From Candidatus Eiseniibacteriota bacterium (GTDB lineage Bacteria; Eisenbacteria; RBG-16-71-46; CAIMUX01; VGJL01): 64,000 bases of DNA. The notes under the pieces are model-generated. The model searched no databases. It was not told the origin of the DNA and was given only the letters and a program-made list of their open reading frames with translations. Shown here piece after piece: positions 36,697-43,522 of this stretch; position 1 is the stretch's first letter, and each line of letters begins with the position of its first letter. A program made the position numbers and the translations under genes. Location: contig JBHGAY010000002.1 of NCBI GenBank assembly GCA_041946735.1, forward strand, positions 1 through 64,000, in the 5' to 3' direction.

Positions 36697-36741
36697 ACAT
36701 ACAGCGAGCAGCGCCCGCCGCGCGGGCCCGCCGGCGACGGC

Positions 36742-36760
36742 GAGGCGGCGGGAATCGAAC
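36742..36760. repeat. Distal att core (duplicate of the tmRNA 3' end)
   Basis: Identical to 41842-41860. Confidence 0.9.
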
Positions 36761-37083
36761 TCGAATTCGGGCGAAAACCTAACTTGGTGACGCTGCGCGA
36801 CTTCGGACGCAACGGATTCGAGGATGAAGAGTTACCGCCGCCTTCGCACTTCCCCTTGGTCCCCTCGGGTCCCCCGCAATCCCCCCTGGTCGTGGAGGTA
36901 TTCTGGAGGCGTCGGGGCAGGTTCCCGCTGCCTCGGCGGGCAGAAGCCCCTCACGGCCTGCAGCACTTCTTCTTGTGGTGAGCAAGCGCCGATCTCTGCT
37001 GGTCCGTGCCTCAGTGGCCAGACATGAATCCAGGCAACGGCCTCCCCTATCCCGACCTGGTCTCCAATCTGTCCAGAAGGAAT

Positions 37084-38061
37084 CTAGGAGGTTGGTGGAC
37101 CTCCCCACTCGACACCTCGCTCGGTAGCGAGTGGCTGCTCCCGGAGGGGTCGGTCGATCGCGATGGCGTCGATCGCTTCCGTGAAGGCGTCCTGCGCGGC
37201 CAGCACGAGCGAAGAGACGTAATCCAGGGCATGCCGCGCGTCGGGTATGTGCTCTTGCTCCGTCTTCCCCGTGTTGATGTTGACGTGCCATGACCCGTCC
37301 GCGGTCGTGACGATCCCTAGACGAGCGTAGAGGCGCTGGAACCGGCCCGTCTCTGCCATCGAGATTCCCAAGGAGGCAAGTGCCACCTCGGCCCGGAGCT
37401 TCTCAATGGCTTGGCCAAGAGTCAGGGCAACCTTGCCCTCCTTCGCTTGCCACCCCGTGATTTGACGCATCGACCAGTTGTCCTCGTTCGTGCTCTGCCG
37501 GAGTGCATAGGCGACGGACTCGAACGCGATCTTCATCGCCACTAGGGTGACGAACGCGTGCCCCTGATCAAGGACGTACGCGGCATCGGCGATGAGCTGC
37601 CGCAGGTGCGGGTTTCTGATCGCATCGGAGAGCGCGTATGTGGCAAACACAAAGCCGTACACCTTGTCGAAGGTGGTTGCCATGAAGGTTTCGACCGGAG
37701 AGACAAAACGCAGCGCTTCCGTCGGGTCCGGGACGTGAGCGTGATGCTGAACGAGGTTCCGGACCCGGTGGAGCCGATCGAGTTCTTGGTAGTGCGGGAG
37801 GCCAGCCAGGCCGACCTGCTTTGCGAGCTTGGAGGCCTCCGTCCAGAGGGAGGACCGCTTTCGGTCGTCTGGCAGTGCCACTTGGGACTCGTGCGGAATG
37901 TCGATCACGTACAGATTGAGGGCCTGCTCGACGGCCAAATCGAGAAACAGGACGCCTCGCATTGCCGCCGATGGCTCTCCGACGCCTGCGGCCTTCTTCC
38001 CCTCAGTGAAGAAGCCATGGGTCAGAAGGAGCAGTCGCGGATTCGTTGGGGCATGCGGCAC
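37084..38061 (-). CDS. Hypothetical protein with N-terminal HEPN-like domain
   Basis: GTG 38061 with GGGAGG RBS; helical N-terminal region with DLAVE and R-N-x-x-x-H motif (RNLVQH, 37744-37761). Confidence 0.6.
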   Translation of the reverse strand: MPHAPTNPRLLLLTHGFFTEGKKAAGVGEPSAAMRGVLFLDLAVEQALNLYVIDIPHESQVALPDDRKRSSLWTEASKLAKQVGLAGLPHYQELDRLHRVRNLVQHHAHVPDPTEALRFVSPVETFMATTFDKVYGFVFATYALSDAIRNPHLRQLIADAAYVLDQGHAFVTLVAMKIAFESVAYALRQSTNEDNWSMRQITGWQAKEGKVALTLGQAIEKLRAEVALASLGISMAETGRFQRLYARLGIVTTADGSWHVNINTGKTEQEHIPDARHALDYVSSLVLAAQDAFTEAIDAIAIDRPLREQPLATERGVEWGGPPTS

Positions 38062-38398
38062 CGTGTCATCCTCCCGGGACGGAGGATAACGCGATGCCAC
38101 GTGAACCTCCACCGGAGGCTCGACCGCATGGTCGCCCTTCAAAGCCCTCACTCACACCCAGAATTCGCGCAGGCGCGCGGGAGCGGGGTCACTCGGGCCT
38201 CGGTCTCGCCAGCGCCTTCCCAAGCCCTCTGGCCCTCCAATCACGCCACCCGCTGGCCTCATTTTTTGTTCCGCTGGCACAAGCAGTGCTAACATAGCTC
38301 GGCAGTGGACGAGTCTCGCGTTTGCAGACTCGTCCCGGAGCGCAAGTAGCTAGTGACAGTCGAGGAGGTGTCCCACGAGCCAGACGTTTGCGACTCTG

Positions 38399-39373
38399 AT
38401 GCGACGCCTATCTCATGCGGGCTTCAAGAGGGAGTTCGCGGCCACGGCCATCCTTCCGGACTGGTGGGAGGAGGCGTGCGCTCAAGACCCCGATCTTCTG
38501 CCGGATTTGGAGACACGGGTTGCCCGTTTCCTCGGGATACCGGTCTCCACGGTCCGCGACCCAGACGCACAGCTAGTGGCACCTTCCTATCCGCGGGCGC
38601 AACTTCGCCGGGTCCGGGACATCAATCGGGACCGGCTTGCACCCGCCATCCATTCGGCGACGAGGATCGCTGAAGCCGTCGTCCGCTCGCTCCGTCCTGG
38701 TGTGCCCGCTCCTGAGGATCCCGCGCCCGACGCCCTCGTATGGCGGCAGAGGATCGTCCCCCGCGGGCCAGTGACTCTCGACCACATCCTCGGCGATCTT
38801 TGGGGACACGGCATCCCCGTTGTCGCGATCGAAAGGCTTCCGTCGCCCGCGTTTCAGGGAGCCGCATTCGTCGTTCACGGACGACCCGTAATTGTCGTCG
38901 TGCACAAGCATGACGAGCCCGGGCGCGTCGCCCATCTCGTCACCCATGAAGGCGGCCACATTGCGCAGGGTGATTGCCAGGAGGGCCAGCCGGTTGTCGA
39001 CGAGGAAGACGAGGTGCCCGACAATGATGAGATCGAGGCGAAGGCGGATCGCTATGCCCGGCGCGTTCTCGTGGGAGCCGATACCGTTCCCTCGGTCCAA
39101 GGCGGAGATTTCAAACAGCTCGCGACCGAAGCGCTCGCGATTGAGCGGTCGACGGGCGCGGATGCCAGCGCCGTCATCTTCGCCTGGGCGGCACAAACCG
39201 GCGACTATGCAGCCGCGTCGATGGCCGTGAGGGCACTCTATCGCGGATCTGGAGCACGGCGTCGGCTCCAGGAGCATCTCGAAAAGAACGTCGACGCCGA
39301 ACGCGCATCGGAGAGCGATCGCGCTCTGCTCCGCTGCGTGCTCGGTCACATGGCCGATGCTGCTGCTGGTTGA
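38399..39373 (+). CDS. ImmA/IrrE family metallo-endopeptidase
   Basis: HEGGH (HExxH, 38945-38959) preceded by GRPVIVV and followed by E-x-x-ADRYA. Confidence 0.85.
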   Translation: MRRLSHAGFKREFAATAILPDWWEEACAQDPDLLPDLETRVARFLGIPVSTVRDPDAQLVAPSYPRAQLRRVRDINRDRLAPAIHSATRIAEAVVRSLRPGVPAPEDPAPDALVWRQRIVPRGPVTLDHILGDLWGHGIPVVAIERLPSPAFQGAAFVVHGRPVIVVVHKHDEPGRVAHLVTHEGGHIAQGDCQEGQPVVDEEDEVPDNDEIEAKADRYARRVLVGADTVPSVQGGDFKQLATEALAIERSTGADASAVIFAWAAQTGDYAAASMAVRALYRGSGARRRLQEHLEKNVDAERASESDRALLRCVLGHMADAAAG

Positions 39374-39968
39374 CACCGACGCCTTCTGCAAACTGGGGAT
39401 CGCCGGTCTGCTCGGTGATGTGCCGGGGCTCTTCGACTTAGGTTTCACAGACTGCCGGCGGCTCCCGGCCCTGCTGTACATGCTTCGCCGGGGACGCCTG
39501 CCGAAGCTCTACGGCGCCGAGGCGTGTGAGGCGCTTCTCTCCGCCGTCGAGAGAGTCGCCGGCCTTTCGCCGCCGAGTGACGCCTGGCTCGACCGCTTGG
39601 CCCATATCCCCGCGATCGATCCCGGCGAGGCTCTCCTCTTCGCCTCCGCGGCCGAATCGGGCCATCTTGTCCTGTCAGGTGACAAGCGGGCACTGGAAGC
39701 GGTCAAGGACGTGCCGGGTTTCGCGGAGGCGCTCTCCGGCCGCATCGTGGTCCTCGAAGCAGCGCTTTTGGGACTCTGCGAGCGCCACGGCGCAGAGGTC
39801 ATCCGCGGCCGGGTTGCGCCGCTCCTCGCATCGGACATGATGGTCGAGGTGTGCTTTTCCCCGGGAAATCCGGACCCGCCAGGGGCCCTCCTGTCCTACT
39901 TCACGGCACTCGCAAGGGAAGTCGCGCCCTTGGCGTTGTGGGATCCTCGCCCGGGAGGTAGAGCATGA
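39357..39968 (+). CDS. PIN-like domain nuclease
   Basis: LLVDTD, IDPGEA, LSGDKRA acidic motifs; overlaps the upstream gene by 17 bp. Confidence 0.75.
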   Translation: MLLLVDTDAFCKLGIAGLLGDVPGLFDLGFTDCRRLPALLYMLRRGRLPKLYGAEACEALLSAVERVAGLSPPSDAWLDRLAHIPAIDPGEALLFASAAESGHLVLSGDKRALEAVKDVPGFAEALSGRIVVLEAALLGLCERHGAEVIRGRVAPLLASDMMVEVCFSPGNPDPPGALLSYFTALAREVAPLALWDPRPGGRA

Positions 39969-41026
39969 GCTTCGGACCCGACCACTACGTCCCCGTCCTC
40001 AAGATCAAGCGCGGCGAGAAGGCGGCACTTCGGCTCCTGGCGCCGTCGTTTTGGCCGCGGATCACGCCGCTCCTCGAGATCGTGGAGCGTCGGTCGGAGA
40101 GGTCGCCAGATGAGCATCTGGAGACCGCTTTCAAGGGCCTTGCCGAGAGTGTGGGCGCATATCCCTACTTCTTCCTCGATTTGCGTGAGCTTGCCCCGGA
40201 CGGCGCCGCGGTCGCGGCCAAGGTCTTCGGGCGGGCGGCAGATGCCGGCATGGCATTCATCCCGGTCACCGGCATCTCGCGCGGCGCGGACCTGGACGCC
40301 GCGAAGGCCCACCGCTCAGGTGGCCTTGCGCTCCGGCTCACGCGCGAGGAATTCGAACGCGGAGATCTCGCGACAAAGCTCAACCGCTTCATGACGACGC
40401 ACGGTCTTGCGCACGAGGAGACGGACCTCATCGTCGATCTCGGCCCGGTCGATGACATGATCGCCCCGGGCGTCATGGCCTTCGCGGAAGCCTTCCTCGC
40501 CGACGTGCCGGAGCATCTCCGGTGGAGGAGCTTCACGATCTCCTCCTGCGCGTTTCCTCGGGGAATGGGCGGCCTCGAGCGCCACTCGTACGACTTCGTT
40601 GACAGGATCGATTGGATTGCGTGGCGCGACTGTCTTCTTGCGAGGAGGGAGGACATCCCACGGCTCCCGACATTTAGCGACGGCGCCATCCAGCACCCGG
40701 CGGGTGTGGAGGGTTTCAATCCCGCAATTATGCAGGCGTCTGCTTCCGTGCGGTACACGCTCGCTGAGAAGTGGCTCAGGATCAAGGGGCAGGGGCTCCG
40801 CACGAAGTCCGGCAGCTTGCAGTTTCCAAGTCTCGCGACCCGTCTCGTGTACGGCGACCTTCGCGGGCACTACGCAGGCCAAGACCATTGCGAGGGCTGC
40901 CGGCTCATTAAGCTCGCGGCGGACGGCGCGCCAAAGCTCGGCTCCCTTGAAGCCTGGCGACGGTTAGGAACCGTGCATCACATCGCGGTTGTCATACAGG
41001 GGCTTGGGCTGCCGCCCGGGCCTTGA
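39965..41026 (+). CDS. Beta family protein (P4 beta / sce7725-like)
   Basis: YVPVLK-x-K-x-GE, ITPLLEI, TFSD-x-AIQHP, SVRYT, W-x-x-x-G-x-x-HHI; ATGA overlap with the PIN gene. Confidence 0.85.
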   Translation: MSFGPDHYVPVLKIKRGEKAALRLLAPSFWPRITPLLEIVERRSERSPDEHLETAFKGLAESVGAYPYFFLDLRELAPDGAAVAAKVFGRAADAGMAFIPVTGISRGADLDAAKAHRSGGLALRLTREEFERGDLATKLNRFMTTHGLAHEETDLIVDLGPVDDMIAPGVMAFAEAFLADVPEHLRWRSFTISSCAFPRGMGGLERHSYDFVDRIDWIAWRDCLLARREDIPRLPTFSDGAIQHPAGVEGFNPAIMQASASVRYTLAEKWLRIKGQGLRTKSGSLQFPSLATRLVYGDLRGHYAGQDHCEGCRLIKLAADGAPKLGSLEAWRRLGTVHHIAVVIQGLGLPPGP

Positions 41027-41621
41027 GGGAAACGCAGACGGTCGCCGCGATCTCGTTCAGGTCGAGAACTTCGCAGAGCCTGTCCCACACGAGGGAGCGC
41101 GGCTTCGCGCGCGCTCCGCGCGCAGCACCCCTGGAGTCCAGCAGTTCCAGCGCCTCATCGCGCCACAAGAGCTCGACGAGGGTGCGCGGGTCCCGCGCCG
41201 GGTTTCTGCGTCCGCGGCGGACCGTGCAGAACCGCGGGCCTGTCAGTCTTTGCTCGATACGGAGGACTCCCCACCAAGGCGGTACCAGTTCCATCGCTCC
41301 CGTGAGGTGCCGCGCTGCGACAACAAGCGTCATGCGTTCGAACACCCGGCTATACACTTCGGCCTGTAGACGGAGCCGGCGGAGGGAATCACGGTCGGAC
41401 TTGATCTCGAACCCATGAAGAAGCCCGTTCACGACCGCGAGGTCAATGCGGACTTGGCCCCGGCAGAGACCGAGTTCCTCGAGCATGACGGTGCCCGCCT
41501 CCCGTGCGTGCTTCGCACCGAGATAGGTGCGAAGCGCTTGGCGGATCTCAGGGTCTCCGCATCTCTCCAAATGGTCGTTCGTGGCTACGCCCTCCACGGC
41601 TGATGATTGAAGCACATCCAA
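40992..41621 (-). CDS. sce7726 family protein (PD-(D/E)xK nuclease-like)
   Basis: DPEIR, EELGL, RIDLAVVNG, GFEIKSDRDSL-x-RL-x-x-Q, WWGV, LLWRDE. Confidence 0.85.
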   Translation of the reverse strand: MDVLQSSAVEGVATNDHLERCGDPEIRQALRTYLGAKHAREAGTVMLEELGLCRGQVRIDLAVVNGLLHGFEIKSDRDSLRRLRLQAEVYSRVFERMTLVVAARHLTGAMELVPPWWGVLRIEQRLTGPRFCTVRRGRRNPARDPRTLVELLWRDEALELLDSRGAARGARAKPRSLVWDRLCEVLDLNEIAATVCVSLKARAAAQAPV

Positions 41622-41651
41622 CTCTGGAATGTCTCCATCGTCCTAGTTCCA

Positions 41652-41674
41652 TGGAGGCGGCGGGAAAGAACCCG
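41652..41674. repeat. Internal degenerate att core (third copy of the tmRNA 3' end)
   Basis: TGGAGGCGGCGGGAA (15 bp exact) then AGAACCCG, versus TCGAACCCG in tmRNA. Confidence 0.8.
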
Positions 41675-41839
41675 AGGGCCCGCAGACGCCTAGCTAGACT
41701 ACAAGGAGATCCCTAGCGCGCAGTCATGTCGGCAGTTACCAATCTGCGGCTTTGCCGCGGCGTCGCGCTGGAACGTGGAGAGATGTTGGAGACAAGCACG
41801 GACTAGGCTGCAAGCCATTTCAGTTACATGAGTTATAAG

Positions 41840-42180
41840 TGGAGGCGGCGGGAATCGAACCCGCGTCCGAAAGGAGATCCGAAAGGACATCTACGTGTGT
41901 GTTCGGTCGTTTGATTCTCGTCCCTCGGGCTCCGGCCGACAGGATCCGTTCGGGACCAGCCTCTGAATGTTTCGCCGCGCTAACGAGGCTCTCACGCGAC
42001 TAGACCGCTGTAACGTCGTCTCTCTGCGACCCAGCGGACGCAATCACAGGAGACGTGGCTACCTAAGCAGCCAGTGCCAATTCAGTGTTGGCAGTTGGTT
42101 TTTGCCACAGGATTTACGAGGCCGTGGCGGCTCGACACGCAGTCCTGACTTCCCTCCCCCCGTCGAAACCAGGCGCCCCC
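41840..42180 (-). ncRNA. ssrA: tmRNA, tag reading frame ANTELALAA*
   Basis: 5' GGGGGCG pairs with 3' CGCCTCCA including the G3-U wobble; T-arm GGTTCGATTCC; tag ORF GCCAACACTGAATTGGCACTGGCTGCTTAG. Confidence 0.95.
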
Positions 42181-42230
42181 GGTTTACTTGCGTCTGCCTT
42201 GGTTCGTGGCTCGGTCCGTTGCTCGGAGGG

Positions 42231-42306
<76 letters not shown>

Positions 42307-42333
42307 AGTGCTCTGTGGGAACACCACCTGGGC

Positions 42334-42362
42334 AGCATAGATCCCGTTCGTTCGACGGTCAA
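42334..42362 (-). promoter_or_regulatory. Sigma70-type promoter for tRNA-Lys/ssrA
   Basis: TTGACC-N17-TATGCT on the minus strand. Confidence 0.7.
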
Positions 42363-42477
42363 GTCACCCGGATATTCCGAGACGAGGTCGTGCGAGCCCA
42401 GGCCGCGACCCGCGGCCGCGCCGCCTGCCGACGCCGGATCCCCATGACGGCTCGGCGGACCGCGCCGAGCCCCGCGA

Positions 42478-42972
42478 TCAGAACGGGAGGTCGCTGTCGT
42501 CGTCTCCCCCGACGGGGCCCGGGTCCTCGTCGCCTGGGTACTCGTCGACGCCGGAAGCGCCGCCGCGCGCGACCGCTCCGGCTCCCGCCCCCGCTCCTGC
42601 TCCGGCATAGCCGCCGGCGGAACCGCCCGGGCCGCCTTCGCCGCCCCGGCCTCCGAGCATCATGATGTTTTGAGCGACGATCTCGGTCGAGTAGCGGGTC
42701 TGTCCTTGCTGGTCCTGCCACTGGCGGGTCTGGATGCGCCCCTCCACGTAGACCTGCCTACCCTTCCGCAGATACTCGCCCACGATCTCTCCCAGCCGCG
42801 CCCAGGCGACCACCCGATGCCACTCCGTCTTCTCTTGCCGCGCCTCGCCCGTCCCCCAGATCTCGGTCGTCGCTAGCCGGAAGTTCGCGACGGTCTGCCC
42901 GCCCTGGGTCTTGCGCACCTCGGGATCCGCCCCGAGATTGCCGATCAGGATGACCTTGTTGATGCTCCGCAT
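42478..42972 (-). CDS. ssb: Single-stranded DNA-binding protein
   Basis: [22 protein letters not shown], Gly-rich linker, DDDSDLPF tail. Confidence 0.97.
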
Positions 42973-43092
42973 GCCTCTTCCTTCCCCGGCCTGGGCTTGC
43001 TGCTGCCCGGCCCGAACCGCTTCCCCAAACCGCACTTGTCAGCCAACGTCCGCCTACCGTACGATCCGTCCTGCGCCCTCGGCCAGGCATTT

Positions 43093-43166
<74 letters not shown>

Positions 43167-43190
43167 CAGACGGTCCCATCGAAGAATCGT

Positions 43191-43264
43191 GGTGGATGTA
43201 GCTCAGCTGGTAGAGCACTGGATTGTGGTTCCAGGTGTCGTGGGTTCGAAACCCATCATCCACC
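43191..43264 (+). tRNA. tRNA-His(GTG)
   Basis: G-1, anticodon loop TTGTGGT, C discriminator. Confidence 0.96.
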
Positions 43265-43445
43265 CATCTCCTTTCTCTCCGTGTCCGGGGGCGCCGGCGC
43301 GCTGGCGTCTCCGGCATCTGGTCCCGGCCCGATCGGCCGCTCCTCGATCCGCGCGGGTCGGGTGGCCCAGCGTGACCGTGAACGTGACCATGACGGCGGC
43401 CGTGGCCGTCCCGGCCGATTCGCTCCTCTACGTCGCATCGCGTGC

Positions 43446-43522
43446 GCGCCCGTAGCTCAGTCGGATAGAGCAGCGGATTTCTAATCCGCGGGTCGGGGGT
43501 TCGATCCCCTCCGGGCGCGCCA
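43446..43522 (+). tRNA. tRNA-Arg(TCT)
   Basis: Cloverleaf, anticodon loop TTTCTAA, encoded CCA. Confidence 0.96.

Follow-up and report, generated by a model that had tools for sequence, protein, structure and literature searches.

A four-gene PIN-effector variant of the Beta/TIM-B class in a tmRNA island of an Eiseniibacteriota genome, with a predicted protease-gated working

The DNA analysed here, called the window below, comprises the first 64,000 nucleotides (nt) of contig JBHGAY010000002.1 (assembly GCA_041946735.1) of Candidatus Eiseniibacteriota bacterium. Its positions 38399–41621 carry a mobile, horizontally acquired cassette of four genes. Three of them lie on the forward strand and encode a predicted ImmA/IrrE-like zinc metallopeptidase (38399–39373, 324 amino acids (aa)), a predicted PIN/VapC-fold nuclease with a C-terminal helical extension (39357–39968, 203 aa), and a Beta_protein family member, also named TIM-B (39965–41026, 353 aa). 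The fourth, on the reverse strand and convergent with the Beta gene, encodes a predicted PD-(D/E)xK nuclease of the sce7726/P4 cII type (40992–41621, 209 aa). The cassette is most likely a protease-gated abortive-infection or toxin–antitoxin (TA) module with the PIN protein as the toxin, and a role in phage defence is likely by analogy with related systems. We estimate a probability of about 0.6 that this is a four-gene, horizontally acquired module of the Beta/TIM-B class working as proposed below, beside an independent solo HEPN gene.

An earlier note on this DNA, made from its letters, had described five open reading frames (ORFs) as one candidate defence system, counting in the HEPN-domain gene at 37084–38151 on the reverse strand (355 aa; the 338-aa form found in the database would begin at 38100). 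The five ORFs, their coordinates and the overlaps of 17 nt (peptidase/PIN), 4 nt (PIN/Beta) and 35 nt (Beta/nuclease, convergent) were found again exactly, and the five domain calls are borne out by families, folds and conserved residues. The HEGGH motif of the peptidase, followed by E213, the VDTD, PGE and GDK motifs of the PIN protein, the D...EIK motif of the nuclease and the RNLVQH motif of the HEPN protein are all present in the window translations and kept in relatives. The unit itself contains four genes, not five.

A scan for the PIN family, with one genome taken per species, revealed 58 loci in Acidobacteriota, Nitrospirota, Gemmatimonadota, Myxococcota, Chloroflexota, Planctomycetota, Proteobacteria and other phyla. 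In 57 of the 58 loci, the gene directly upstream of the PIN match is a peptidase homologue, and all four genes were matched in 43. The neighbourhood is conserved across genomes: in the 33 loci where each of the four genes is covered to at least 80% by one alignment, their order and orientation are identical in every case, and the remaining 25 loci show cuts by contig ends, frameshifts or decay. The peptidase and PIN genes overlap by 17 nt in 26 of 34 loci and the PIN and Beta genes by 4 nt in 23 of 37, counts that depend on start codons picked by a script; the convergent overlap of the Beta and nuclease genes, the only one independent of that choice, is 23 nt or longer in 33 of 33 loci, measuring 35 nt in 15 of them and 44 nt in 10 others. 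A conserved fifth gene in the flanks was looked for and rejected, the largest cluster among 358 flanking ORFs covering five loci. The 138 neighbours scanned include a good number of defence and mobile genes, among them SNF2/ResIII, DUF1156, DUF499 with HEPN_Swt1, TIR, Mrr, HsdM, UvrD, integrases, a transposase, PrimPol, RepA and a portal protein. A tRNA gene was found in 12 of the 58 loci and a tmRNA (transfer-messenger RNA) gene in none.

The PIN gene of the cassette occurs in one of 206 genomes of the host's phylum, the host's own, and the same is true of the HEPN gene. Both genes are therefore imports. One defence system of all five genes, with PIN and HEPN as dual effectors, as the earlier note had it, is very improbable. 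In its favour, the HEPN gene and the operon diverge from an intergenic region of 247 nt, both lie between the same repeats of the tmRNA end, and identical contigs with HEPN gene and cassette together recur in four further public sequencing runs, which apparently represent the same strain and are not independent. Co-occurrence elsewhere largely refutes the five-gene system: a HEPN-like gene is present in none of the 58 cassette loci and in one of five cassette-bearing genomes searched, there on a different contig. The HEPN family is sporadic, with 7 of 401 genomes of one phylum carrying such a gene and no neighbour common to these seven loci.

The product of 38399–39373 is predicted to be an ImmA/IrrE-like metallopeptidase, an assignment that is weak for the window protein taken singly and is backed by its family and by a profile match to CapP. 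Residues H183, E184, H187 and E213 are conserved across 46 sequences. Pfam Peptidase_M78 was matched by 24 of 29 family members at E ≤ 0.1 (best 2.4e-6), and the family profile retrieved the CapP structure 7t5t at 8.7e-4 with the HExxH motif and the downstream Glu aligned. PADLOC models gave matches of the window protein to PD-Lambda-2_B at 5e-8 (PDLC03982, 5.1e-8; residues 134–230 against profile positions 246–341 of 402) and to capP at 2e-5. When the window peptidase was searched singly, no sequence relatives with solved structures were found.

The PIN protein has no family match in Pfam, PADLOC or NCBIfam. Its AlphaFold2 (AF2) model reached a pLDDT of 95, and all 17 chains at Z ≥ 8 in the structure comparison are VapC/PIN proteins (top 5x3t_B, Z 10.2, root-mean-square deviation (rmsd) 3.3, 123 residues aligned); the top Foldseek match of the model is PAE2754 (E 0.028). 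Among 8000 candidates scored, 375 proteins belong to the family at E ≤ 0.001, and the best 120 are 53–81% identical over their full length. PF01850 was matched by 3 of 55 family members and the DUF4411 models by none. Residues D6, D8, D88, E91, D109, E134 and D160 are conserved in 47 sequences, with D6, E91 (together with D88), D109 and E134 in at least 97%, and this conservation of acidic residues argues for a working nuclease. A search of a plasmid collection gave no match to the PIN or HEPN proteins.

The Beta protein matches PF14350 over profile positions 1–341 of 342 (178.5 bits with a cut-off of 27; 3.4e-52) and the PADLOC model PD-Lambda-2_C over 7–349 of 374 (PDLC03983; 2.8e-29). About 60 of its columns are conserved to at least 97%, including H308-C309-x2-C312 and H338-H339, a cluster which we take to be reminiscent of the zinc site of tRNA-guanine transglycosylases. 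Its model in the Atlas resembles the Sce7725 family (TM 0.64) and, weakly, TIM-barrel enzymes (TM 0.42–0.47). Beta is predicted to be a regulator or sensor of an enzyme-like kind. It is only 18% identical to the Beta protein of P4, and in a phage collection the Beta query matched only two records. The convergent nuclease matches NF033832 (sce7726_fam) with 156.2 bits (cut-off 70; 8.3e-46) and the PADLOC model 'cll' of gop_beta_cll at 9.7e-30; D60 and E72-I73-K74, which form its PD-(D/E)xK motif, are shared by at least 97% of the 38 sequences compared. No sequence relatives with solved structures were found for either the Beta or the sce7726 proteins.

The peptidase and the PIN protein are predicted to form a complex. 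Three modelling runs gave ipSAE values of 0.82, 0.80 and 0.82, and the best of three controls gave 0.00; the runs share at least 94% of contacts, and the pLDDT of the partners is at least 88. Of the complexes with solved structures, 116 of 157 attain the mark set for this tool, as do 2 of 215 mismatched pairs; these counts hold only roughly here, where analyst-made alignments were used. In the model, peptidase residues 20–53 (as well as 92, 96 and 304–307) contact PIN residues 36–48, 69–93 and 111. The peptidase side of this interface holds the invariant W22, W23, R40 and R43, and the PIN side flanks the conserved D88, E91 and D109. The model supports binding of the conserved N-terminus of the peptidase to the active-site face of the PIN protein and suggests that this N-terminus acts as an antitoxin of the VapB type. 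In vapBC operons the antitoxin gene comes first, and the order of the PIN cassette, with the peptidase gene first, agrees with this; the order of PD-lambda-2, with HigB first, is that of higBA.

The same pair also occurs alone. In nine of nine loci on viral contigs (L097–L105), a peptidase–PIN dyad with 26–33% identity to the window pair was found without Beta or nuclease genes, and two peptidases from these contigs exceed the Pfam M78 cut-off (29.0 and 26.2 bits). In one of them (L101:4511-6126; 324 and 213 aa), the dyad adjoins a Dam-type methyltransferase gene and a portal gene. Decayed cassettes (L054, 5899-7199; L055; L058; L052) keep the peptidase gene, intact in L054 and split in L052, and only the first 32–51 codons of the PIN gene, with no Beta or nuclease gene. 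An intact PIN gene without the peptidase gene was seen in no locus. A further locus (L019:5644-8279) has the peptidase, the PIN protein and an sce7726-type nuclease without Beta; very large ORFs, some of them DUF1156-type, flank it.

Four kinds of systems in the literature resemble parts of the cassette. PD-lambda-2 (Vassallo et al. 2022) consists of a HigB-like protein, an Xre-peptidase and a P4-Beta-like protein and confers abortive-infection defence against lambda-vir, for which its Beta component is needed (PMC9519451). Like the cassette, it is an operon that combines an ImmA/IrrE-type peptidase and Beta with a toxin fold of the RNase type. In PD-lambda-2 this fold is HigB, whereas the window cassette has a PIN/VapC fold, and none of the five island proteins matches PADLOC PD-Lambda-2_A. 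The gene order is HigB, peptidase, Beta in PD-lambda-2 as opposed to peptidase, PIN, Beta in the window; component B has an Xre helix-turn-helix (HTH), and none was detected in the window peptidase family (0 of 29 members). The part of the PD-lambda-2 paper available defines three components and names no cII-type gene (PMC9519451).

The gop-beta-cII module of P4 (Rst_gop_beta_cll) confers protection from lambda and P1 (Rousset et al. 2022, PMC9122126), and it is triggered by a phage gene, according to the available part of a preprint (10.1101/2023.04.06.535777). In the annotation of P4, gop and beta are on one strand and cII is convergent; in the Rac-SA53 prophage, beta and cII overlap by 41 nt. 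As in the window, a gene on the same strand lies immediately 5' of Beta and a convergent sce7726/cII gene lies 3' of it. The differences are that Gop (133 aa, predicted in the TIM-B preprint introduced below to have two transmembrane helices (2TM)) is replaced by the PIN protein, that a peptidase gene is added, and that P4 cII has 264 aa compared with 209 aa for the window nuclease. The statement of the earlier note that no gop gene is recognisable is confirmed: none of the five island proteins matches the PADLOC gop model at E ≤ 0.1. A relationship of the PIN protein to Gop was considered and rejected, since hhalign gave a probability of 0.1 for the PIN profile with P4 Gop.

A computational preprint of October 2026 describes systems built of an effector, an optional metallopeptidase, Beta and a convergent overlapping restriction endonuclease (REase), and renames Beta 'TIM-B' (bioRxiv 10.64898/2026.10.19.760177). 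As effectors, its text names HigB, REase, Pol-beta, GNAT, sirtuin, RES, caspase, Gop, a second 2TM family and PAACC; proteolytic derepression is proposed (10.64898/2026.10.19.760177). The cassette shares the Beta_protein/TIM-B core, the same-strand upstream effector, the metallopeptidase layer and the convergent overlapping REase of the P4 cII family. It differs in that a PIN protein is not named as an effector in the preprint text (Figure 6B or the supplements may show one) and in the position of the peptidase, which precedes the effector in the window and according to that text is 'often between effector and TIM-B'. Three-component TA-like systems have also been described in which a PIN-like gene follows an HTH-DUF955 peptidase gene (Matelska et al. 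2017, PMC5499597, in the part available). These are alike in the PIN-like gene directly downstream of an ImmA/IrrE-type peptidase gene and in the conserved HExxH; the window family differs in having no detected HTH and no DUF4411 match, and its dyad comes together with Beta and a cII-type nuclease.

Judged by sequence, the cassette is a PIN-effector variant of the Beta_protein (TIM-B) class, related to P4 gop-beta-cII and to PD-lambda-2 of E. coli. Because the dyad occurs alone on viral contigs, the Beta and cII genes have the same arrangement in P4 and Rac, and Gop is unrelated to PIN, the cassette is read as a peptidase–PIN dyad joined to the beta/cII pair, in the position of gop in P4. The earlier note recognised no named system; the PADLOC models PD-Lambda-2_B, PD-Lambda-2_C and gop_beta_cll 'cll' do match, and the TIM-B class is in print. 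A full match to a described system was not found, with no HigB-like component, no gop and no PIN named in the available preprint text. Current PADLOC models detect only parts of the cassette.

We propose the following working. The PIN/VapC-like nuclease would be the toxic effector, made together with the upstream peptidase, whose conserved N-terminal region would keep it inactive; the two would thus be a pair of the VapB–VapC type with the antitoxin fused to a protease. The Beta/TIM-B enzyme would serve as a regulatory or sensing layer, as may be expected from PD-lambda-2, where Beta is needed. Upon phage infection, the peptidase would remove the inhibitory segment, and the released PIN protein would cut RNA, so that the infection is aborted. 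The PD-(D/E)xK nuclease, encoded by the convergent, 3'-overlapping gene, could be a second effector whose expression is opposed to that of the operon by transcriptional collision. What stands of the earlier note is its idea of a protease-gated TA or abortive-infection module with PIN as the effector; its inclusion of HEPN among the effectors does not.

Phage-defence loci repeatedly contain Beta/TIM-B proteins and ImmA/IrrE peptidases, and this variant pairs both with the well-understood toxin fold of VapC-type PIN proteins. It is compact and strongly conserved (about 55–60% identity across phyla), and the model that places the N-terminus of its peptidase on the active-site face of PIN is confident and testable. 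It may provide a handle on the substrate of the peptidase, on sensing by TIM-B and on the constant overlap of the opposing nuclease gene. A more specific version is a gated suicide switch of three layers, in which PIN would be neutralised by the N-terminal antitoxin of the protease, TIM-B would hold the protease off by means of a nucleobase-derived product or modification, interference of a phage with TIM-B would lead to self-cleavage and release of the toxin, and the antisense-coupled nuclease would act as a fail-safe. We regard this version as speculative and, in its full form, somewhat unlikely. If it is true, TIM-B and the ImmA/IrrE proteases get a defined place in one signalling chain.

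The cassette could also be an addiction module of the TA kind only, which stabilises its mobile elements and has no role in phage defence. The architecture is that of a TA pair, with translational coupling and a predicted tight complex, and integrative-element and prophage-like settings were observed; the decayed copies in L054, L055 and L058, which keep the peptidase gene and a PIN stub only, also fit this explanation. Against it, both experimentally tested relatives, PD-lambda-2 and gop-beta-cII, defend against phages, two additional conserved enzyme genes are poorly explained by addiction, and the island has no integrase or replication gene to stabilise. On balance, pure addiction appears unlikely.

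Several points weigh against the reading of the cassette as a defence module gated by its protease. The window peptidase scores 13.2 bits against Pfam Peptidase_M78, under the cut-off of 22. None of the 29 members of the peptidase family has a match to an HTH family, and no other known antitoxin domain is detectable at their N-termini either (0 of 29). At least one gene is missing in 15 of the 58 loci, in some by contig ends and in others by decay, and many of the cassette neighbours in other loci are housekeeping genes. Two of the three overlap counts depend on the choice of start codons, as stated above. The link of TIM-B to deazaguanine transglycosylases comes from the modelling in the preprint and from no other source (10.64898/2026.10.19.760177), and the sequence profile of Beta retrieved no meaningful relative in the PDB and no transglycosylase. 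The whole of the proposed working is inferred, self-cleavage purely so.

The last of these points is the polarity of PD-lambda-2, which is opposite to the one proposed: when overexpressed, PD-lambda-2B (the Xre-peptidase) and not HigB is toxic, and the HigB-like PD-lambda-2A rescues (PMC9519451, in the part available). Applied to the window, this would make the metallopeptidase toxic and the PIN-fold protein its neutralising partner or a sensor. The available text of the TIM-B preprint allows the metallopeptidase as 'an alternative effector' (10.64898/2026.10.19.760177), and the predicted peptidase–PIN complex fits either polarity. Such reversed roles are at odds with the conservation of the PIN residues D6, D88/E91, D109 and E134 described above, and with the modelled interface, which covers the active-site face of PIN in the manner of an antitoxin. 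In addition, decayed loci drop PIN and retain the peptidase, as expected if PIN is the toxin. We consider the reversed polarity quite improbable and prefer PIN as the toxin.

The gene at 37084–38151 is, from its motif and its modelled fold, a real HEPN gene. In 63 diverse family members, R114 and H119 of the RNxxQH motif are the only invariant columns. The AF2 model (pLDDT 91.5) aligns over residues 16–150, approximately, to HEPN proteins: 2hsb with Z 13.3 (rmsd 2.6, 123 residues aligned), sacsin HEPN with 11.5 and a Shewanella HEPN toxin with 11.3; chance alignments of helical bundles can give Z values of about 13, and the motif is the stronger argument for HEPN. Searches of Pfam, PADLOC, NCBIfam and PHROGs assigned the protein to no sequence family. 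Three homologues were found by word search and 1095 cluster representatives by a full HMM (hidden Markov model) search. The solo HEPN abortive-infection proteins AbiV and HepS are alike in being encoded by a single gene, in the N-terminal HEPN fold with Rx4H and in their variable mobile contexts, and both are among the fold matches (AbiV 9bj5, Z 8.2; HepS 9oik, Z 7.9); the window protein differs from them by an extra C-terminal domain of about 180 residues, which has no family match.

The surroundings of the seven HEPN loci in the 401 genomes include an HNH gene with a ResIII-Mrr helicase gene, a serine recombinase, a TPR-GreAB-C-PIN protein, transposases and an AAA_13 ATPase. No HEPN-like relative was detected on viral contigs, and a metagenome scan for the gene gave seven loci, mostly short or distant and uninformative. 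We read the gene as an independent, sporadic, solo putative HEPN RNase gene of variable regions, which shares the integrase-less tmRNA island with the cassette by chance.

The five ORFs occupy an island of about 5 kb at the 3' end of a tmRNA gene (41839–42180, reverse strand, tag ANTELALAA; predicted by ARAGORN, Rfam RF00023 181.9 bits), flanked by direct repeats of that end. The left border of the island is a distal, degenerate copy at 36740–36763, in which 21 of 24 bases match 41840–41863. It is the sole other match to the tmRNA 3' end in the window at no more than three mismatches, with none expected from 100 shuffles. A second, partial copy lies at 41652–41675, 164 nt from the tmRNA gene; it agrees with 41840–41854 at 15 of 15 bases, and the similarity goes on with one indel. 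With it, three copies of the tmRNA 3' end are present at the site, and the partial one may have been left behind by an earlier or nested insertion.

The tmRNA 3' end is, by this sequence evidence, the putative integration site of the island. None of the five ORFs matches an integrase family in searches of Pfam, PADLOC, NCBIfam and a further family library. An empty site was sought without success in 25 genomes of the same order, in which the left-flank gene is not within 1.5 kb of the tmRNA gene and synteny is not kept. Because gene order beside the tmRNA gene is not kept in these genomes, the repeats are the only evidence for insertion. Isolated copies of the tmRNA 3' end (model positions 346–363) were observed in several relatives of the same order, a few kb from the tmRNA gene or away from it (for example, G029:C134:57228-57244), which suggests that islands at the tmRNA end are common in this order.

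Four further public runs (X2–X5), from different studies and of low depth, contain island contigs without differing letters in the compared pieces (window 36760–41866, cassette and HEPN gene); they seem to represent the same strain, which is apparently widespread. Among the sequencing runs listed, none is of RNA. No form without the island was seen among the contigs of these runs; one apparent joint in X3 (36763 to 42282) resembles a tRNA of another organism.

Regulatory signals were also sought. A perfect 10-nt inverted repeat with a 9-nt spacer (38307–38335) lies 63 nt upstream of the peptidase start. It was considered as a conserved operator and rejected, as a perfect repeat with arms of at least 7 nt was found upstream of the peptidase gene in 1 of 35 other loci. 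The search also gave no sigma-70-like promoter, and terminator-like sites are no more frequent than in shuffled sequences.

Some neighbouring genes can be noted. In a Longimicrobiales genome, a canonical gene fusing an Xre HTH to Peptidase_M78 lies about 1.5 kb past the cassette (L036:10666-11745). In the window, a cluster of tRNA genes (Lys, Pro, His, Arg; 42231–43522) is located just past the tmRNA gene. The ORF at 42478–43035 on the reverse strand has an acidic DDDSDLPF tail and, from a reading of its translation, resembles a single-strand DNA-binding protein.

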